Virus record (IMG/VR): IMGVR_UViG_3300024272_002111
DNA: 20,000 nucleotides
Reading direction: 5' to 3' (one strand)
Origin: an uncultured virus (IMG/VR IMGVR_UViG_3300024272_002111)
Lineage: Duplodnaviria; Heunggongvirae; Uroviricota; Caudoviricetes
Shown here: positions 3,824 through 16,954 of the stretch, one piece after another
Position numbering within the stretch: position 1 is the first letter of the stretch
Layout of the letters: each line of letters begins with the position of its first letter
Notes under the pieces: generated by a model
Told to the model about the DNA's origin: nothing
Database searches by the model: none
Seen by the model: the letters and a program-made list of their open reading frames with translations, nothing else
Translations under genes and position numbers: made by a program

Positions 3824-4105
3824 ATGAACAGAACAGAATTTGTAAAGGCAGTAGCTACAGCAACAGGTTTCACACAGAAGGATGTAAAGGCAGTTTTAGA
3901 TGCTGCTCAGACAGTAGCTTATGGCGCAATGGCAAAGGAAGAAGAAGTAGCTGTTTTCGATGGTCTTAAGCTTAGTGGTATCAGAAAGCCTGCTTGTGTA
4001 AAGAGAAATCCATTAACTGGCCAGGATGTGCAGGTAGCTGAGAAGGTAGCTCCAAAGGCTAAGTTTGGTGCGGTTGCAAAGCGTGTAGTTAACGGCGAAG
4101 AATAA
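3824..4105 (+). CDS. hup: HU family histone-like DNA-binding protein (SPbeta YonN position)
   Basis: MNRTEFVKAVA N-terminus, RNPLTG arm and PKAKFG motif; 93 aa with a strong RBS. Confidence 0.93.
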   Translation: MNRTEFVKAVATATGFTQKDVKAVLDAAQTVAYGAMAKEEEVAVFDGLKLSGIRKPACVKRNPLTGQDVQVAEKVAPKAKFGAVAKRVVNGEE

Positions 4106-4142
4106 TTAAATATAACAGCGTATAAACACATAATGGTGTTTC

Positions 4143-4170
4143 TGCCGGTTCATTACCGGCATACGTTTTT
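4143..4170 (+). terminator. Hairpin downstream of HU, probable terminator or stabiliser
   Basis: TGCCGGT-TCATT-ACCGGCA followed by TACGTTTTT. Confidence 0.45.
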
Positions 4171-4235
4171 ACCAGTAGTCTCCTACTGCTCATATATATA
4201 TAAATATGTTATTCTAATAAAAATTTATATATAGG

Positions 4236-4535
4236 GTGGGTTACGTGGACGATTTAAAAAAATTATTTAATAATAGTGGATTAACATTTCATGAGTTATC
4301 AAAATTATCTGGTGTTTCATTATCTACAACACATAGATATGTTAATAATAAAACGAAAGAAATGGATGATGAACATTACTCTTCTATTTATGAAATATTA
4401 AAAGAATATAAGAGTCATGAAATTGTTCATGATGACTATGAATTAGATTATATTGTTTTGCAAGCAGAAAGAGCTATGTATAAGACATTTCATGATCAGT
4501 TTATGGAGATGTATAAAAAATACAAAAGCGAATAA
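4236..4535 (+). CDS. XRE/Cro-type helix-turn-helix protein
   Basis: GLTFHELSKLSGVSLSTTHRYVN is an HTH signature. The GTG start is uncertain (4236 or 4245). Confidence 0.75.
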   Translation: MGYVDDLKKLFNNSGLTFHELSKLSGVSLSTTHRYVNNKTKEMDDEHYSSIYEILKEYKSHEIVHDDYELDYIVLQAERAMYKTFHDQFMEMYKKYKSE

Positions 4536-4540
4536 AATTG

Positions 4541-4676
4541 AGGTTTGGCAGTTGGTTAAGCTGACGTTTACTTGGGTGGAGTAATTACCATACTGGGTAT
4601 TCAGTGAGAAACCTATCGGGTGCACACGAGGTCTCTACGGAGCACTGCTTTAAGGCAAGGAGGAGTCCTTGTCTTA
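4541..4676 (+). ncRNA. Structured non-coding segment of unknown class
   Basis: AGGTTT 4541-4546 pairs with AAACCT 4609-4614 and encloses further stems. There is a cUACGg tetraloop at 4635-4640 and an 11-bp hairpin TAAGGCAAGGA/TCCTTGTCTTA at 4651-4676. No credible ORF. Confidence 0.5.
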
Positions 4677-4681
4677 TATAT

Positions 4682-4745
4682 GGGCTTTCATATGGATGGT
4701 AGTTGTGGCATGACAACTAGGTAGGATCATTCCCTACGGAGTCCA
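4682..4745 (+). ncRNA. Alanine-identity tRNA-like RNA without a D-stem (tmRNA tRNA-like-domain architecture, or a degenerate tRNA-Ala)
   Basis: Acceptor GGGCTTT/GGAGTCC with G3.U70 and discriminator A; 13-nt loop CATATGGATGGTA; stem GTTGT/ACAAC; 3-nt linker; T-arm GTAGG-ATCATTC-CCTAC. Confidence 0.55.
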
Positions 4746-4806
4746 CTTACCTATTGAGGGGTTAGAATACTCAAATCACGTCTATGACAAAGAAACGGAC
4801 ATAGCA

Positions 4807-4895
4807 TTTGCTCGTTAGTGAATTAGCTATCAAGATGGATAGCGTGGCTCTGTGGATAGCAGAATTCCATTGGTTATAGTATACCAGCAAACGAG
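4807..4895 (+). ncRNA. Multibranch structured RNA of unknown class
   Basis: CTCGTT 4811-4816/AACGAG 4890-4895, GAATT 4820-4824/AATTC 4863-4867, a GCTATC/GATAGC hairpin at 4826-4843 and a TGGT/ACCA hairpin. Confidence 0.45.
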
Positions 4896-4911
4896 ACCGA
4901 AATACTATTTT

Positions 4912-4984
4912 GCACATGAGGACAAACAGCAGAGTCGTCACCCTGTCACGGTGAAGATAGCGGGGTCAGCACCCGTCTTGTGCG
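4912..4984 (+). tRNA. Non-canonical tRNA-Asp(GTC)
   Basis: Acceptor GCACATG/CTTGTGC with one mismatch, D-stem GAC/GTC, anticodon arm TCACC-CTGTCAC-GGTGA, T-arm GCGGG-GTCAGCA-CCCGT and discriminator G. No encoded CCA. Confidence 0.8.
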
Positions 4985-5013
4985 TTATTAAAAACTTATA
5001 TACGCAGAGTTTA

Positions 5014-5039
5014 AGAGCAGATACTACTGCTCTATTTTT
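5014..5039 (+). terminator. Hairpin downstream of the RNA island
   Basis: AGAGCAG-ATACTA-CTGCTCT followed by ATTTTT, nested within a TACGCA/TGCGTA stem (5001-5046). Confidence 0.5.
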
Positions 5040-5074
5040 ATGCGTAAATATTATGAAAATCGAGGAAAAGGAAA

Positions 5075-5251
5075 TTGATTAACATTAGTAAGGATGTAGC
5101 ACATCGTTTAAACAAGGAGTTTGGTATTCCATTTAGTTGTTATGAAGGGATTTCACGTTCAAAATCTCGTCATGGTAAGCATTCTAAGTACTATCTTGCG
5201 GAGAGTAAGTATAATCTGAATTCTTTAAGAAAGGTTCAGAATAACAAGTAG
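5075..5251 (+). CDS. Small basic hypothetical protein (58 aa), absent from the ORF track
   Basis: TTG start after GAGGAAAAGGA; MINISKDVAHRLNKEFGIPFSCYEGISRSKSRHGKHSKYYLAESKYNLNSLRKVQNNK then TAG. It fills the gap before the next gene. Confidence 0.7.
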   Translation: MINISKDVAHRLNKEFGIPFSCYEGISRSKSRHGKHSKYYLAESKYNLNSLRKVQNNK

Positions 5252-5275
5252 ACTAAATAGGAAGGACTGAAGAAT

Positions 5276-6715
5276 TTGAGTAAGAAGAAGGATAAAATAA
5301 CGGTACGATGTGTAGGTATGTCGTCTTCTGAGGTTACTGGATCTGGATATCTTGTGGAGTGCCCTACAGGTGAAAAAATTATTTTAGATTTAGGATTATA
5401 CCAGTCTTCGAAGCCGTATGAAGATTGGAAAATTAATAAAAGAAAATTTGATTTTAAACCTTCTGAAATAAATGCAGTAATTATCTCACATTCAAATGCA
5501 GATCATTTTGCCTTATTACCAAAGGCGGTTCGAGATGGGTTGAGCTGTGATATTTTTATTGCGGCTGAAAATGTTGATTTCATGAAACCAATGCTGGAGG
5601 ATTCGGCCAGAATCATGGAGAGAGATGTCCAATCTTTTAATAGAAAGTTAAAAAAAGAACACTCTCCTGTATACGACTTGGATGATGTAGCTGCTACTCT
5701 TTCATTATTTAGAGGGTGTACAAAAAACGAAGACCATTATATTTCTGAAAATGTGTGGTTTAGACTTGTGAATGCAGGTCACATTTTTGGATCTTGTCAG
5801 ATTGAATTATTTGTAAAAATGCCTTCTGGAGTGATAAAAAAGCTTGGTTATTCAGGTGATCTCGGAAATGTGATTTTCGAACAGCCTTTTGTAGAACCAT
5901 TAGAACCAATTACAAAATGTGCAATGTATATTGGAGAAACTACATATAATGATCCTAAACGTTCTGTAAAAAAAGGACAGCGTGAAAAAGATTTAGAGAT
6001 GATGAAGAACGTTATTGAGCAGACTTGTATTGATAAAAAGGGGATTGTGCTTATCCCTACTTTTGCTTTACAGAGGACTGAAACAATGCTTTATATGCTT
6101 TGGAAGCTCTTTAAAGATGATGAAAAGTTTAATATTCCAATTGTAGTAGACTCTCCTCTTGCAGTTACTTTGCTTGATTGTTTTAGAAATAATCTTCAGG
6201 GCGAATGGCTTGATACATTTGATGAAATGATGACATGGAAGAATATTAAAGTTATTCGCACTGTTGAAGAAAGTATGGCATGTGTAGCAGATGATTCTCC
6301 GAAGATTGTATGTTCATCTTCCGGAATGCTCACACAAGGACGCAGTATTCTTTATTTAAAGAAGATTTTACCTAGAAGTAATTGTGCAATTTTAACATGT
6401 GGTTATATGGCTGAGGGTGGAATTGGCTGGAAGATAAAGAATAATCCAAGCCAAAGAACAATTACAATTGACCAGAAAGCATATCCAAATCGTTGTGATA
6501 TCAAGTGTTTGGATTCGTTCTCAAGTCACATGCAGTATGAGCAGCTTATGAATTATTATACCAATCTTGCGAACAATGGTTGTGAGGTTATCTGGTTGGT
6601 TCATGGTGATAAGGGCAAGTTAAAGTTCAAGGAAGAATTGGAAAAGCGAATTAGCAAGATTTTAAAAACAACAAAAATCGTAGCTACCAATAGAGATACG
6701 GTGGCAAGAATTTAA
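5276..6715 (+). CDS. MBL-fold beta-CASP ribonuclease (YSH1/CPSF73-like bacterial group)
   Basis: EVTGSGYL, LDLG, SHSNADH (motif 2 variant), AGHIFGS, SGDLG, ETTY, IPTFALQR, SSGML, FSSH and LVHG motifs appear in the expected order. Confidence 0.9.
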   Translation: MSKKKDKITVRCVGMSSSEVTGSGYLVECPTGEKIILDLGLYQSSKPYEDWKINKRKFDFKPSEINAVIISHSNADHFALLPKAVRDGLSCDIFIAAENVDFMKPMLEDSARIMERDVQSFNRKLKKEHSPVYDLDDVAATLSLFRGCTKNEDHYISENVWFRLVNAGHIFGSCQIELFVKMPSGVIKKLGYSGDLGNVIFEQPFVEPLEPITKCAMYIGETTYNDPKRSVKKGQREKDLEMMKNVIEQTCIDKKGIVLIPTFALQRTETMLYMLWKLFKDDEKFNIPIVVDSPLAVTLLDCFRNNLQGEWLDTFDEMMTWKNIKVIRTVEESMACVADDSPKIVCSSSGMLTQGRSILYLKKILPRSNCAILTCGYMAEGGIGWKIKNNPSQRTITIDQKAYPNRCDIKCLDSFSSHMQYEQLMNYYTNLANNGCEVIWLVHGDKGKLKFKEELEKRISKILKTTKIVATNRDTVARI

Positions 6716-9825: not shown

Positions 9826-9862
9826 TTATTAAGGAGAGTGGTTGCCCACTCTCCTATTATAT

Positions 9863-9936
9863 TGGGATGTAATTCAGTTTGGCAGAATGCGTGATTTGGG
9901 ATCACGATGTCGTCGGTTCGAACCCGGCCATTCCAA
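9863..9936 (+). tRNA. tRNA-Pro(TGG)
   Basis: Acceptor TGGGATG/CATTCCA, D-arm ATTC/GAAT with GG, anticodon arm CGTGA-TTTGGGA-TCACG, T-arm GTCGG-TTCGAAC-CCGGC and discriminator A. CCA is not encoded after position 73. Confidence 0.92.
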
Positions 9937-9942
9937 TTTTGG

Positions 9943-10086
9943 TCAGATGGAAAATCTGATAAGGAGTTAAAGTAGGACGGTTTATACTGTCCTATCTCCA
10001 CCTTCTATGTGTAGACGAATGTTTGGGTATGCTCCAAACGGCACAGAATATTAGAAGGGCGTGGCGAAATGCTGCGCTCTATTTTA
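9943..10086 (+). promoter_or_regulatory. Structured leader of GIY-YIG gene 1
   Basis: Consecutive hairpins TCAGAT/ATCTGA, TAGGACGG/CTGTCCTA, CCTTCTA/TAGAAGG enclosing TGTTTGG-GTATGCT-CCAAACG, and GCGTGGC/GCTGCGC. Confidence 0.55.
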
Positions 10087-10108
10087 TTGCACAAAGGAGG
10101 AAATAATT

Positions 10109-11152
10109 ATGGGTAAAAGATTTAGTCCAAAAAAATATAATATTATTTGTGGGGTTTATGCTATTACAAATAAGATTAACGGGAAAAAGTATATTGGGAA
10201 ATCGGAAAATATTTATGTTAGATGGGACGAACATAGAAAAGAATTAAATAAAAATATACATAACAATAAACATTTACAAAGAGCATGGAATAAATATAAA
10301 GAAAATAATTTTTCATTTCAAATTATTGAAATTTGTGATTCGAATGAAGCTGCGTATCAACGAGAAATATATTGGATTAAATATTACGATTCTTTTAAAA
10401 ATGGCTATAACATGAACGAAGGTGGTACTGGCGGGCTAGGATACAAGCATACTCAAGAAGATATAGAAAAAATGAGTATTATTCAAAAGGAACATGCAAA
10501 CAATCCTGGTTATAGAGAAATGTTATCTGATGCACACAATGATTATAAGAAGCCAATTGTACAAATTGATTTGATAAATAATACGGTAAATTATTGGGAT
10601 TCAAAAAATAAAGCAGGCAGACATCTAAATTTACAAGCAGCAAATATATTGTCAGCATTAAATAGAGATAATCACTTTGCACATGATAGTTTGTGGTTTT
10701 ATCAAGAAGATTATAATGAGAACATTAATATTTGGGATTATATAGCACAAACAGATATGTATTACAGATATATCAAATACTATCAATATAATTTTAAAGG
10801 ATCGTTGATCAAAATATGGGATTATGATGAATTGTGTAATTCCAAATATATAAACGATTGTGTATATAAGTGTTGTAATTTCCAAAAAGGGTTTTATGAA
10901 AACAGTATTTGGTTATTCGAGAAAGATATAAATCAACTTAGTGAATTGGTAGAAAAATATAAAAATAAAGCAAAAATTTATTGTGAGCCGATTAACGTTT
11001 TTGATTTGAACGGAGTGTATTTACGTACATCGGAGAATATTTATACTGAATCAATTTTATCCGATTGTCGTGCATATGATATTTGTTTATGTTGTGAGGG
11101 TAAAAGAAAATCTGTGAAAAGTCTTATTTTTAAATACATAAATATATTATGA
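10109..11152 (+). CDS. Free-standing GIY-YIG homing endonuclease with NUMOD-like C-terminal repeats
   Basis: GVYAITNKINGKKYIGKS, RW..H, E.YWI and GYNMNEGG motifs. AAAGGAGG precedes ATG 10109; the ORF-track start at 10061 lies in a hairpin. Confidence 0.9.
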   Translation: MGKRFSPKKYNIICGVYAITNKINGKKYIGKSENIYVRWDEHRKELNKNIHNNKHLQRAWNKYKENNFSFQIIEICDSNEAAYQREIYWIKYYDSFKNGYNMNEGGTGGLGYKHTQEDIEKMSIIQKEHANNPGYREMLSDAHNDYKKPIVQIDLINNTVNYWDSKNKAGRHLNLQAANILSALNRDNHFAHDSLWFYQEDYNENINIWDYIAQTDMYYRYIKYYQYNFKGSLIKIWDYDELCNSKYINDCVYKCCNFQKGFYENSIWLFEKDINQLSELVEKYKNKAKIYCEPINVFDLNGVYLRTSENIYTESILSDCRAYDICLCCEGKRKSVKSLIFKYINIL

Positions 11153-12274: not shown

Positions 12275-14041
12275 ATGGTGAATAATAAAAAAACTATCTC
12301 CGAAGTCCAAAAAGAAAAATCGGAACGCTTAATGGATGGTATCGGGTATTGGGCAGCATTCTATAGAAAAAATCCACAAAGATTCGTAAAAGAATTTTTG
12401 AACATGAATTTAAAACTGTTTCAAAAGATACTTATCTATATGATGATGGTAAGTACGAATTTTCTTTACATAGCCAGCCGCGGATCTGGAAAAACTTGGT
12501 TAACTAGCCTTTATTGTGTAGTCAGATGCATTTTATATCCGGGTACAAAGATTTGTGTAGCTTCCGGTGTAAAATCGCAGGCAGTAGAAGTTATTACTAA
12601 AATAGAAACAGATTTCTTAAAGAATTATTCATGGGGGTCACAAAATTTAAGAAACGAAATTAGCTTCATATCTTCTAGTGTTAATAATGCCAGAGTGGAT
12701 TTTCATAATGGTTCTTGGATAAATATTGTAACAAGTAATGATAATGCCCGTCATAATCGTGCAAATATTATAGTTGTGGACGAGTTTAGAATGGTAGATT
12801 TAAATGTTATCAATACCGTATTACGTAAGTTTTTGACAACAACAAGAATGCCAGGATATTTATCTAAGCCAGAATATGCTCATTTACAAGAGCGAAACTC
12901 AGAAGTATATATGTCTTCTGCCTTTTATCAGAGTCATTGGGCATATGATAAAACAAAAGCTTATTTTGCAAATATGCTTGATGATAAACGTAAGTATTTT
13001 TGCTGCGGATTACCGTATCAGCTTGCAATCAAAGAAGGTTTATTGCAAAAAGAACAAGTAGAGGATGAAATGTCAGAAGACGATTTCGATGAAATTGCAT
13101 TCTCTATGGAAATGGGAGCACTTTGGTATGGAGATTCTGATGGTGCTTTCTTTAGATATGATGATATTTCAAAACATAGAAAAATTAAAAATGCTTACTA
13201 CTCTCTTGATATGTATGATAAACGAGGGGTTAATATCCCTGAGTTGGCATATGGAGAAAAACGAATTATGTCGGTGGACGTTGCTCTTATGGCAACTAAA
13301 AAACATGCAAACGATGCTACTGCCATCGTGATTAACGTAGCGATACCTACAAATAACAATTCTTATACTAGCAATATTGTTTATATAGAAACATTTGAAG
13401 GTCTTAAAACAGACGAGCTTGGCATTATTATTATGAGATATTTCTATAAGTATAAATGTACAGACTTGGTATTAGACTGTCAAGGTAATGGTTTAGGTGT
13501 TTATGATTTTATCACCAAAGAGCAATATGATACGACTACCGGTGAAACTTATACTGCTATGTGTAGCTGTAATGATGATAATATGGCAAGCCGTTGTACC
13601 GCAAAAAATGCCAACAAGGTTGTTTGGACTGTTAAGGCTAATGCAGAATTTAACTCTTCTGCCGCTACTCTTTTGAGAGCAGGTATTAAGAATGGCAATA
13701 TAAACTTTCTTGCTTCTGAATTTGACATTGAAGATAGCATTAAGAAAACAAGCGGGTATTCTAAAATGTCTGCAAGTGAGCAGGCAAGATTAAAATTGCC
13801 ATATGTGCAAACAAGTTTGTTAATTAATGAAATGATTAATCTTGAACATGAAATTGTTAATAATCGTGTTAAGTTAAAAGAACGAGCAGGAATGAGAAAG
13901 GATAGATTTTCATCTCTTGAATATAATTATTATGTTACTCAACAACTAGCATTAAAATTAAAACCAAAACAAGATTTTGGAAATCTCGTCTCTCAGCTTA
14001 CAATTCGTCCGGCGAGACGATTATCTTCATTTAATGATTAA
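12275..14041 (+). CDS. terL: Terminase large subunit (YonF-like)
   Basis: Walker A ASRGSGKT, Walker B IIVVDE, coupling motif YMSSA, nuclease SVDVA and KDRFSS. Confidence 0.92.
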   Translation: MVNNKKTISEVQKEKSERLMDGIGYWAAFYRKNPQRFVKEFLNMNLKLFQKILIYMMMVSTNFLYIASRGSGKTWLTSLYCVVRCILYPGTKICVASGVKSQAVEVITKIETDFLKNYSWGSQNLRNEISFISSSVNNARVDFHNGSWINIVTSNDNARHNRANIIVVDEFRMVDLNVINTVLRKFLTTTRMPGYLSKPEYAHLQERNSEVYMSSAFYQSHWAYDKTKAYFANMLDDKRKYFCCGLPYQLAIKEGLLQKEQVEDEMSEDDFDEIAFSMEMGALWYGDSDGAFFRYDDISKHRKIKNAYYSLDMYDKRGVNIPELAYGEKRIMSVDVALMATKKHANDATAIVINVAIPTNNNSYTSNIVYIETFEGLKTDELGIIIMRYFYKYKCTDLVLDCQGNGLGVYDFITKEQYDTTTGETYTAMCSCNDDNMASRCTAKNANKVVWTVKANAEFNSSAATLLRAGIKNGNINFLASEFDIEDSIKKTSGYSKMSASEQARLKLPYVQTSLLINEMINLEHEIVNNRVKLKERAGMRKDRFSSLEYNYYVTQQLALKLKPKQDFGNLVSQLTIRPARRLSSFND

Positions 14042-14113: not shown

Positions 14114-15676
14114 ATGGCACGAAAAATGGAAAAGACAGAGGTGACTACTACGACACCTTCTAACGTAAAGAAACAACCTACTGCGGTTGAAGTTAGGGAA
14201 TTTTATGAGAAGAATAAAGATGCAATTAAGACTTTTGCCATGACAGAAAGTGCAGCAAAACCATTAAAAGATGTCACTAAGACTGCAACAAAAAGTATTA
14301 GTACGTTTAATCGGGAAACGTTGCGTTCCTATATTTCTAATTTAGGATCTAATGAGAAAAATCTTAGAAGTCTTTCATGGTATTTATACTACAGATCTCA
14401 AACATATGCTAGATTAATGAATTTTTACGCAGATATGTTTTGTTTATATGCTAGACGAGTAATTCCACCATACGATTTGGTTAAAGGTGGCGATGCTACG
14501 AAGATGTTAAAGTCATATAATGATACCCTTAACGTGTTAGAAAAAATGAATTTACAACAAGAGATGCGCAATGCATATTTAAATTGTTTTATTCAAGATG
14601 TGTTTTATGGTGTTGTTATCTATGATGATACAGGTATTTTTATTTGGCAAGTTCCATCCGATTATGCAAAAATAGCCGGAAAGTATTCTACTGGTGATTA
14701 TAGTTTTGCTATTGACTGTTCTTATTTTAGATCTCATCAAGAACTTTTAGAATATATGCCAGACCCTTTGGATGCTATGTATAAAGAGTATCAGAGTTCT
14801 GGTCAAAAATGGATTGTTGTTCCGGATATTAACTGTTTATGCTTGAAGTTTAGAAGTGAAGATTGGGAAACTGTTTTACCACCAATGACTCCTATTTTTG
14901 AAGCACTTATTAATTTAAGTGATTTAGAGTCTATTCAGGCAGTAGCTAATGAGCAAGAAATTTATAAAATGATTTGGTTACAAATGGAGACTTTATCTGG
15001 AGCAGATTCCCCTGATGAATGGAAAGTAGACCCGTCCATTATGATTGAGTATTTTAATCGCATGATAAATGAGGCTCTACCAGATTATATTTCGGCAGCT
15101 ATTGTGCCAGGAAAATTAGAGACAGTATCGTTTACTGACACACAAAAGGCCAATGATACTACTAAAATTGCGAAGGCTACAGAAACTGTTTTAAATACGG
15201 CGGGCGGTGCAGAGATTTTAAATGGTAGTACTATTTCCGGCGCAGAAGCATTTAGATATGCACAGATAGTAAACACTGAATATGCAATATCTTCTCTTCT
15301 ACCGCAAACCCAGGCATGGGTGAATCGTTTCTTATCTCTTCAACTTGGAAATCCTAGCAGAGTTGAATTCTTCCCAGTAAGTGTTTATACAAAAGATACT
15401 TTTAAAAAAGATTTATTAGAGTCTTGTCAATATGGATTTAATAATAAAATTGCGTATAACACTCTTAATGGAATTTCTGAAAAAGAAACACTTGCAATGG
15501 CATTCTTTGAAGAACAGGTATTGGGATTGCATGATATTATGAAATATCCACTGTCTAGTTCTTTTACTACCGCTGGTACAGATAATCCAACCGGAGAAGA
15601 TGGCAGACCAAAGGATGATGTACAGACAACAAGTGGGGAATCGTCCGAAGAGAAAAGAGATAAGAGCAACGGATAA
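14114..15676 (+). CDS. Portal protein (YonE-like)
   Basis: 520 aa directly after terL, with LRSLSWYLY, a C-terminal PLSSSFT...GRP tail and an AAGGAGGTG RBS. Confidence 0.8.
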   Translation: MARKMEKTEVTTTTPSNVKKQPTAVEVREFYEKNKDAIKTFAMTESAAKPLKDVTKTATKSISTFNRETLRSYISNLGSNEKNLRSLSWYLYYRSQTYARLMNFYADMFCLYARRVIPPYDLVKGGDATKMLKSYNDTLNVLEKMNLQQEMRNAYLNCFIQDVFYGVVIYDDTGIFIWQVPSDYAKIAGKYSTGDYSFAIDCSYFRSHQELLEYMPDPLDAMYKEYQSSGQKWIVVPDINCLCLKFRSEDWETVLPPMTPIFEALINLSDLESIQAVANEQEIYKMIWLQMETLSGADSPDEWKVDPSIMIEYFNRMINEALPDYISAAIVPGKLETVSFTDTQKANDTTKIAKATETVLNTAGGAEILNGSTISGAEAFRYAQIVNTEYAISSLLPQTQAWVNRFLSLQLGNPSRVEFFPVSVYTKDTFKKDLLESCQYGFNNKIAYNTLNGISEKETLAMAFFEEQVLGLHDIMKYPLSSSFTTAGTDNPTGEDGRPKDDVQTTSGESSEEKRDKSNG

Positions 15677-15963: not shown

Positions 15964-16120
15964 GTCGGTAACTCATGTTAGGGTATGTTCCTAACACCGA
16001 CAAGAGAGACTTATGGGATAATTACCCACCACTCTTCTATCCATTAAGACTTGGCAAAATGCCAGGTCTTTTTGATTGGAGGAAAGCACATGTCGTGAGA
16101 CAGCAGTAAGCCTTTCCTCT
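15964..16120 (+). promoter_or_regulatory. Structured leader of GIY-YIG gene 2, including a terminator-like hairpin
   Basis: GTCGG/CCGAC enclosing TGTTAGG-GTATGTT-CCTAACA; AAGAG/CTCTT enclosing TGGG-ATAATTA-CCCA; AAGACTTGGCA/TGCCAGGTCTT plus TTT (16046-16073); GAGGAAAG/CTTTCCTC enclosing TGTC-GTGA-GACA. Confidence 0.6.
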
Positions 16121-16150
16121 TTTGTTTTTACAAAGGAGGAGAAAATAATA

Positions 16151-16954
16151 ATGAGTTACAATAAAGAAACCGGTATGTATGAAGGGTTTATATACAAGAT
16201 CTATAATGATGTGAATGATAAGATTTATATCGGACAGACGCGAAGGTTTATAGCGGAACGGTTCTCAAAGCATATAAGTGATGCATTTAATAGAGATGAT
16301 AATATGGCTTTACATGCAGCGATTAGGAAATATGGAAGAGAAAACTTTCATATTTGCGAAATAGAATGTATTAAATGTGATTCTAAAGATGAGCTTGTTC
16401 GTAGGTTAAATGAAAGAGAAGTATATAATATAGTTTTATACAACTCCAAAAGTCCTAATGGATATAATGTTTCTACTGGTGGTGTTTTAAATGATACAAA
16501 ACGAATTCCTATTGTAAGATATGACACAATTAGAGGTGCATATTATGAATATGATTCCATTGTAGACGCTGAAATAGACACAGGAATATCCTCAACTCGC
16601 ATTTGTGCTTGTTGTAATGAAAGAGTTTTTAGTTGTGATCGAAATATATTTAGATATAAATCACAGGGTATTACAGAGGAAGATATAATTAAATATACAC
16701 ATTTGCATCCAAAAGTAAAAAAATATAATTTCAATGGGGATCTTATCAATACATATATTACGCAAAAAGAGGCTGCTGAAGATTTAAAAGCAATATATCC
16801 TTTGGCAAGTATAACTAGTATTACTGCTTGTTGTAAGGGTAAATTGCAAACTGCTTATGGATTTATATGGAGATATGAATTCGATGATTTTGACAAATAT
16901 GCAATAGATAACTTGCTTGGTGAAAGCGGTATAAGGGCAAAAAAGGCAGTGTAA
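16151..16954 (+). CDS. Free-standing GIY-YIG homing endonuclease with NUMOD1-like repeats
   Basis: GFIYKIYNDVNDKIYIGQT, RF..H, ERE, PNGYNVSTGG and ACCKGKLQTAYGFIWRY motifs; AAAGGAGG precedes ATG 16151. Confidence 0.9.
   Translation: MSYNKETGMYEGFIYKIYNDVNDKIYIGQTRRFIAERFSKHISDAFNRDDNMALHAAIRKYGRENFHICEIECIKCDSKDELVRRLNEREVYNIVLYNSKSPNGYNVSTGGVLNDTKRIPIVRYDTIRGAYYEYDSIVDAEIDTGISSTRICACCNERVFSCDRNIFRYKSQGITEEDIIKYTHLHPKVKKYNFNGDLINTYITQKEAAEDLKAIYPLASITSITACCKGKLQTAYGFIWRYEFDDFDKYAIDNLLGESGIRAKKAV

Follow-up and report, generated by a model that had tools for sequence, protein, structure and literature searches.

A 64-nt element on the forward strand of a phage genome is best explained as descending, in remodelled form, from a phage tRNA-Ala(GGC) gene and as being one unit of an aberrant tRNA array at positions 4536–5010 of the window (the whole 20,000-nucleotide stretch of uncultured viral DNA that we analysed). 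We assign this reading a probability of roughly 0.45. That the element descends from a tRNA and belongs to the array is likely in our judgement, whereas that it is still a working RNA is a tentative claim, a little short of even odds. The element is odd and directly testable. Its parts are as follows.

4682–4745, + strand: candidate tRNA-Ala-like element of 64 nt without a D stem (sequence and fold)
4682–4688, + strand: 5′ strand of the acceptor, pairing with 4738–4744 over 7 bp, with A73 at 4745
4689–4701, + strand: D region of 13 nt with two GG doublets and no D stem (sequence)
4700–4719, + strand: central hairpin, a 7-bp helix (4700–4706/4713–4719) with a 6-nt loop at 4707–4712 (GGCAUG; MFE fold)
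4721–4737, + strand: T arm, a 5-bp stem (4721–4725/4733–4737) with the 7-nt loop AUCAUUC at 4726–4732 (sequence and fold)

Each of the parts that the initial annotation had described was recovered, namely the 7-bp acceptor with G1-C72, G2-C71, G3.U70 and A73, the stemless D region of 13 nt, the capped central helix, and the 5-bp T stem with loop AUCAUUC (A54/U58) behind a 3-nt linker. The MFE fold (−20.1 kcal/mol) lengthens the central stem from 5 to 7 bp and forms no more than a 3-bp mini-stem within the D region. The acceptor consists of G1-C72, G2-C71, G3.U70, C4-G69, U5-A68, U6.G67 and U7.G66, that is, four Watson-Crick and three G.U pairs, with G3.U70 among the latter. The T stem abuts this acceptor, has 5 bp and a 7-nt loop as in tRNA, and retains U55, C56 and the G53-C61 closing pair, with A at position 54 and U at position 58. 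In its minimal form the central hairpin is a 5-bp stem (4702–4706/4713–4717) around the six-base loop 4707–4712, and it is this form that leaves the three-base linker before the T stem. All stem pairs (17 of 17) are intact, no reading frame spans the element, and the bases 3′ of A73 are not CCA.

A second reading of the centre of the element is a perfect 5-bp stem (4700–4704/4715–4719) with a 10-nt loop that contains G-U-GGC-A-U. On its sequence, we take this loop to be the anticodon loop of a tRNA-Ala(GGC), enlarged by three bases on the 3′ side; with these bases present, two further pairs form and the loop closes to 6 nt. The closed hairpin of 7 bp and 6 nt has a predicted energy of −19.6 kcal/mol, compared with −9.1 kcal/mol when the register is shifted to give an anticodon loop of 7 nt with GGC as the anticodon, so that the standard register costs an extra 10.5 kcal/mol. 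A standard anticodon loop with U33 and a purine at position 37 is feasible only in the shifted register, and there it carries an A.A mismatch. Because the anticodon hairpin is closed, ordinary decoding of GCC and GCU is unlikely, and the element would decode poorly or in an unusual way at best, or else would be an alanine-carrying small RNA with another role.

Descent from a tRNA-Ala(GGC), which the initial annotation had mentioned as an alternative, is the reading that we favour, because the alanine acceptor signals and U-GGC-A co-occur, the T arm is shared with a real tRNA and the element lies in an array. The T arm at 4721–4737 is identical at 17 of 17 positions to that of a tRNA-Ile(gat) on an unrelated viral contig (L021, 1151–1224, +), which is called by ARAGORN, scores 61.6 bits with the Rfam tRNA model and has the same T loop, AUCAUUC, with A54 and U58. 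The other 12 hits of the T-arm scan were chance matches. When the element was aligned globally with 125 distinct phage tRNAs, the best alignment was to a tRNA-Ala, at 45 compared with 44 for a tRNA-His. It seems, from the L021 tRNA-Ile and the candidate, that T arms in phage arrays can be common to different isotypes.

The bacterial alanine identity set, as given in the accessible portion of PMC9976931, comprises A73, G2-C71, G3.U70, G4-C69 and G20. The element has A73, G2-C71 and G3.U70 and carries C4-G69 in place of G4-C69; G20 is unassignable, the D arm being missing. Judged by its acceptor sequence, the element probably still accepts alanine, and we infer charging by AlaRS because the acceptor helix carries alanine identity, according to PMC9976931.

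In the preferred reading, a tRNA-Ala(GGC) would have lost its D stem while its anticodon loop widened to 10 bases, across which two extra pairs could zip to leave a loop of six; the GG doublets of the D region could still build the elbow. The element would be co-transcribed with a neighbouring tRNA-Asp, on a transcript that would end at the terminator at 5014–5040. Host tRNA-processing enzymes would then excise it and add CCA, a step that we propose because CCA is not encoded after A73. Finally, host AlaRS would load the element with alanine; AlaRS enzymes charge helix-only substrates.

The window is from a phage. It encodes a terminase (12275–14041), a portal protein (14114–15676), a head protease and two homing endonucleases of the GIY-YIG type, and all of its family-linked ORFs are on the + strand. 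An 83.6-kb IMG/VR contig rated approximately 55% complete contains the window sequence, and the sequencing runs in which this sequence occurs are animal-gut metagenomes, mostly bovine. The nearest named relatives of the portal protein (28–30% identity) belong to Bacillota phages with genomes of approximately 125–135 kb, and the host of this gut phage is probably a member of the Bacillota. ARAGORN in its default mode calls a single tRNA in the window.

9862–9937, + strand: canonical tRNA-Pro(tgg), the sole default ARAGORN call, also matched by Rfam

One GIY-YIG homing endonuclease gene (10061–11152, +) lies directly 3′ of this tRNA-Pro(tgg) gene, and a second, a GIY-YIG/NUMOD1 gene (16076–16954, +), sits amid structural genes. 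An abiF RNA motif (Rfam RF03085; 14052–14088, +) lies between the terminase and portal genes and scores 54.8 bits, where the gathering score is 37. The same phage also has an odd 66-nt tRNA-like sequence (L057 424–489, −, which is G005:C1:28723–28788) just 3′ of a gene stop codon; it has a canonical T loop and a sub-threshold Rfam tRNA score of 19.5 bits.

The element lies in a non-coding stretch (4536–5010) that has a GC content of 0.43–0.48, compared with approximately 0.30 for its surroundings and the genome, and that is bounded by the stop codon of a small HTH gene (4535) and by a terminator-like hairpin. Downstream of the terminator there is a 58-codon ORF and then a nuclease gene.

5014–5040, + strand: intrinsic-terminator-like hairpin (5014–5033) and T run that close the non-coding stretch (sequence)
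5276–6715, + strand: beta-CASP/RMMBL nuclease gene, conserved in phages (family match)

We examined 11 loci around beta-CASP relatives with 59–90% identity, the window's own copy being excluded (4 viral and 8 metagenome loci were fetched). ARAGORN found tRNAs in six of the 11 (Pro, Pro, Ile, Gln, Gln and Ile plus Thr, seven in total) and none in the other five, and in all six tRNA-bearing loci the tRNAs were upstream of the nuclease gene. The element itself was missing from all 11. Because relatives carry differing tRNAs upstream of the nuclease, we regard this site as a place of tRNA gene gain and loss. The variation from relative to relative (Pro, Ile, Gln or Thr) can be followed in loci L003, L004 and L048–L051. 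An RNA-processing-family nuclease beside a tRNA hot spot may merit attention in its own right.

Besides the element, the non-coding stretch holds three further segments.

4538–4630, + strand: upstream conserved block of approximately 90 nt with some tRNA-like features (Logan contig alignment)
4747–4908, + strand: 162-nt segment missing in one relative, in which 4746 is joined to 4909 (Logan joint and fold)
4912–4984, + strand: tRNA-Asp(GUC), missed by default ARAGORN and by Rfam (anticodon arm identity and family covariation)

In the tRNA-Asp unit the D stem has 3 bp, the 10-nt D loop lacks GG and the T loop reads GUCAGCA; the anticodon arm is that of the canonical tRNA-Asp(GUC) of 21 other viral loci. 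A scan with its T arm returned 15 loci: its own contig, six unrelated sequences and eight true relatives in phage tRNA arrays (L060, L063, L065, L068, L070, L072, L073 and L074). The family T arm, GCGGG-GUCAGCA-CCCGY, is common to Asp, Glu(CUC) and Met/CAU members, the anticodons among the eight relatives being GUC in six, CUC in one and CAU in one; the arm is invariant by construction, as it was the query. In the family alignment (A3; eight rows, seven distinct), pairing holds in 97.9% of cloverleaf cells, and compensatory change is seen at 12 of 20 pairs, a number reached by none of 500 shuffles. The Rfam tRNA model scores three family members at 45.7, 42.8 and 34.7 bits and does not list two others or the copy in the window. 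Because 4912–4984 belongs to this covarying family, at least one real tRNA gene in the stretch escapes the standard tools. In L073, the CAU member (1454–1526, +; 42.8 bits), which has the odd T arm, lies seven bases 5′ of a tRNA-Met(cat) at 1533–1608, so that the pair comprises a standard and a non-standard copy of one anticodon.

The other two segments are less easily classified. The upstream block contains a D-loop-like UUGGUUAAG together with C-U-UGG-G-U and is matched, with 4–8 differences, by records 5, 6, 7 and 15 from the X6 and X8 runs. A canonical tRNA 3′ end lies immediately upstream of it in one contig of X6. The block gives no clean cloverleaf and no Rfam match, and a search for relatives with an 18-mer from it returned only the same contig. 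Within the 162-nt segment, the 3′ part (approximately 4808–4897) folds as a stem enclosing three hairpins and may be another aberrant tRNA-like unit. An 11-mer is repeated at 4632–4642 and 4731–4741.

To place the element among its relatives, we aligned Logan contigs of four runs (X6, X7, X8 and X20) on positions 4300–5300. The stretch around the element is modular, and one block recurs.

4674–4747, + strand: block that recurs in other metagenome contigs with differing neighbours (Logan contig alignment)

In X20 record 1, a contig from an RNA library, the block is present with five differing letters and 4746 is joined directly to 4909, so that the block ends four bases 5′ of the tRNA-Asp unit. 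In X6 record 8, a DNA contig, it is present with seven differing letters, and 4747 is followed by 12 other letters and then by 4999, just before the terminator; here the block is kept and the tRNA-Asp unit is missing. The D region of X6 record 8 is also 3 nt shorter, having lost two letters at 4693 and one at 4696. The block borders lie eight bases 5′ of G1 and one or two bases 3′ of A73. Closer relatives (X7, X8 and X6 record 9) retain the whole stretch; within the element they are listed with one substitution only, 4711 T>A in the hairpin loop. Some runs left parts of the stretch uncovered, to which we attach no meaning. The X20 contig over the element is not proof of transcription, because RNA libraries can hold DNA.

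The initial annotation had called for covarying homologues, and none emerged from k-mer, blastn or covariance-model searches. A 25-mer, a 16-mer and an 18-mer of the element retrieved nothing from IMG/VR beyond the same contig, some chance hits and a tRNA-Ile that is unrelated apart from sharing the T arm. Anchoring on the HTH protein led only to the same contig. A blastn search of the element against 50,697 phage records gave one 31-nt hit at chance level. Among 185,579 species genomes, a 20-mer from the core of the element had no hits and the T-arm 17-mer had seven, none of them tRNA-like. When a covariance model built on the element was applied to 33 phage records, it recovered the element itself and otherwise just two hits near 12 bits. 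No diverged homologue was thus found in IMG/VR, the phage records or the species genomes, and the relatives among the Logan contigs are close ones, with five and seven differing letters. We also considered whether the element is the 3′ half of a host tRNA kept as an attachment site and rejected this, as the core 20-mer and the T arm occur in no tRNA of the species genomes scanned; there is no integrase near the element.

A possible but somewhat doubtful alternative is that the element is a dead relic, a tRNA-Ala(GGC) pseudogene in a decaying array with no function of its own, whose intact stems reflect a recent origin. The two gross changes, the loss of the D stem and the three-base widening that closes the anticodon loop, are the lesions expected of a dead tRNA gene. 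The element is accepted by neither Rfam nor default ARAGORN, and around it lie apparent tRNA fragments such as the 11-mer repeat; the blocks that are retained also vary among relatives. Divergence in X6 record 8 is compatible with decay as well, the block having 7 differences in 74 positions compared with 21 in 142 for the flank, which, as totals only, is not clearly lower. Against this, every stem pair is intact, the block has exact gene-like borders in two rearranged contexts, and it is kept in a relative that lacks the real tRNA-Asp unit. The sole indel seen falls in the unpaired D region, and the neighbour at 4912–4984, which detectors miss equally, is a member of a covarying family. A mere relic would be nothing more than what the fast turnover of phage tRNA arrays commonly leaves behind.

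Another alternative is that the element is not a unit at all: it may be a fold that arose by chance, or 4536–5010 may form one larger structured RNA or regulatory region to which it belongs. Its shape and fold energy are indeed at chance level. The fold energy has a z of −1.6, with 14 of 200 shuffles equally stable, and the z for the whole stretch is −1.4. A shape descriptor (7-bp acceptor, abutting T arm of 5 bp and 7 nt, inner hairpin of at least 5 bp, 58–72 nt, both strands) matched four sites in the window compared with 3.4 per dinucleotide-shuffled window. What is unusual is not the shape but the agreement of the alanine signals: when G3.U70 and A73 are required in addition to the shape, 0.20 occurrences are expected per window (80 in 400 shuffles), and with U-NGC-R also required in the hairpin loop the expectation is 0.005 (2 in 400 shuffles). 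These expectations are indicative only, because the filters were picked after seeing the site. The failure of the upstream block to resolve as a tRNA would also fit a region that is not built of units. However, the block borders seen in other contigs coincide with the predicted ends of the acceptor stem, a real tRNA has the identical T arm, the alanine signals are mutually consistent and no Rfam family matches the stretch. We regard this explanation as improbable.

The detectors themselves count against the preferred reading of a remodelled tRNA-Ala(GGC), in that the element has no Rfam tRNA match above approximately 10 bits and no default ARAGORN call. Infernal with the tmRNA and tRNA models and ARAGORN, the tools proposed in the initial annotation, gave no match apart from ARAGORN in mitochondrial mode. 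At Rfam gathering thresholds, only the tRNA-Pro and the abiF motif were matched in the window, and not the element. At E ≤ 10, the region 4000–6500 and an 84-nt slice around the element yielded no tRNA, tmRNA or other plausible family; the weakest rows listed for the slice were at approximately 9.7 bits, and tRNA was not listed. Across the 83.6-kb record, neither the tRNA nor the tmRNA model found anything at the element region, and the element reaches neither the tRNA (RF00005) threshold of 29 bits nor the tmRNA (RF00023) threshold of 47 bits. Default ARAGORN called neither a tRNA nor a tmRNA at the element. In mitochondrial mode, with the threshold lowered to 90%, ARAGORN called an mtRNA-Ala(ggc) at 4681–4746, a call that is at noise level because the same setting made 10 calls in a 1-kb slice, on both strands. 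Group I and group II introns, RNase P RNA, Y RNA and other known families were rejected as candidates, there being no Rfam match at E ≤ 10.

It is also conceivable, if unlikely, that the element is a dedicated, non-decoding alanine carrier or decoy, a 64-nt RNA without a D arm that host AlaRS would charge but whose zipped anticodon loop would prevent decoding. Such an RNA might draw off AlaRS or EF-Tu, might feed the transfer of alanine outside normal translation, or might enter ribosomes in the manner of tmRNA. If this were true, armless tRNA-type molecules would have their first example outside animal mitochondria.

Very unlikely is the proposal of the initial annotation that the element mimics the tRNA-like domain of tmRNA, binding SmpB and being alanylated so as to act at stalled ribosomes or to titrate SmpB, AlaRS or EF-Tu. 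The tRNA-like geometry and alanine acceptor signals on which the proposal was built stand, as do the missing D stem and the helix in place of a decoding arm, and the closed loop speaks against normal decoding; a likeness to tmRNA in particular is not supported. To our knowledge, G3.U70 and A73 are common to every bacterial tRNA-Ala, and for that reason they do not indicate a tmRNA. The tmRNA model (RF00023) gave no match to the element at the gathering threshold or at E ≤ 10, whether on 2.5 kb, on the 84-nt slice or on the phage record, whereas in a Paenibacillus genome used as a control it gave 16–31 bits to sites of approximately 60–160 nt (mostly 70–80 nt), which we take to be ordinary tRNAs. 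If they are, the element is less like the tRNA-like domain of tmRNA than ordinary tRNAs are. We compared the element with three tmRNAs, one from Paenibacillus and two from Bacteroidales. All three have a canonical T loop (GGUUCGAnUCC), from which AUCAUUC differs. The GGAU of the D region, which had been likened to tmRNA, recurs within a UGGAU shared with the Paenibacillus tmRNA, but UGGAU is missing in both Bacteroidales tmRNAs, and X6 record 8 has a deletion in the D region. Between the acceptor and T halves there is only a 20-nt hairpin, with no mRNA-like domain, tag frame or pseudoknots. Neither an SmpB gene nor a gene for a CCA-adding enzyme was found in two partial phage records (55% and 30% complete), and the alanine anticodon in a tRNA context and the tRNA array setting point to descent from a tRNA.

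Apart from the element itself, phage tRNA arrays hold genes that are missed by ARAGORN and the Rfam tRNA model, and phage tRNA counts are likely to be underestimates because a tRNA-Asp of a covarying family scores below every threshold. If the RNA is made and charged, it would raise the question of what an alanine-charged RNA with a closed anticodon loop is for.

Compared with the tRNA-like domain of tmRNA (RF00023), the element has the same alanine acceptor identity, stemless D region and helix in place of the decoding arm, but it differs in having no mRNA-like domain or pseudoknots, a non-canonical T loop and no match to the model. Members of the GCGGG-GUCAGCA-CCCGY family resemble it in their location in phage arrays, their non-standard T loop, their reduced D arm and their being partly missed by ARAGORN and Rfam, and also in that one T arm serves several isotypes, as the candidate's is shared with a tRNA-Ile. 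In that family, however, a D stem of 3 bp and a standard anticodon arm are retained and covariation is strong; the candidate has no D stem, no standard anticodon arm and no known diverged relatives. The likeness to bacterial and phage tRNA-Ala (RF00005) extends over the 7-bp acceptor with G3.U70, G2-C71 and A73, the 5-bp T stem and 7-nt loop keeping U55, C56 and G53-C61, the U-GGC-A of the central loop, and the location in a phage tRNA array. Unlike tRNA-Ala, the element lacks a D stem, has a 10-nt loop that closes to 7 bp and 6 nt, is only 64 nt long with a 3-nt variable region, carries A54/U58 and C4-G69, and is not matched by the model.

Among the matches listed from the full-text literature, which were available in part, there was no D-arm-less tRNA in a phage. 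Metazoan mitochondrial tRNAs that lack the D arm have a short connector in its place and keep the acceptor and T arm, according to the accessible text of a review of non-canonical tRNAs (PMC7609411), in which a term search found neither 'phage' nor 'viral'. On that account, the element is like these tRNAs in having a connector for the D arm and in retaining the acceptor and T arm, and it is unlike them in that they keep a 7-nt anticodon loop and have co-adapted mitochondrial factors, whereas its own loop is closed. We know of no co-adapted factors of the mitochondrial type for a phage in a bacterium. Should the RNA prove to be made and charged, D-arm-less tRNAs would extend from animal mitochondria to a bacterial virus.
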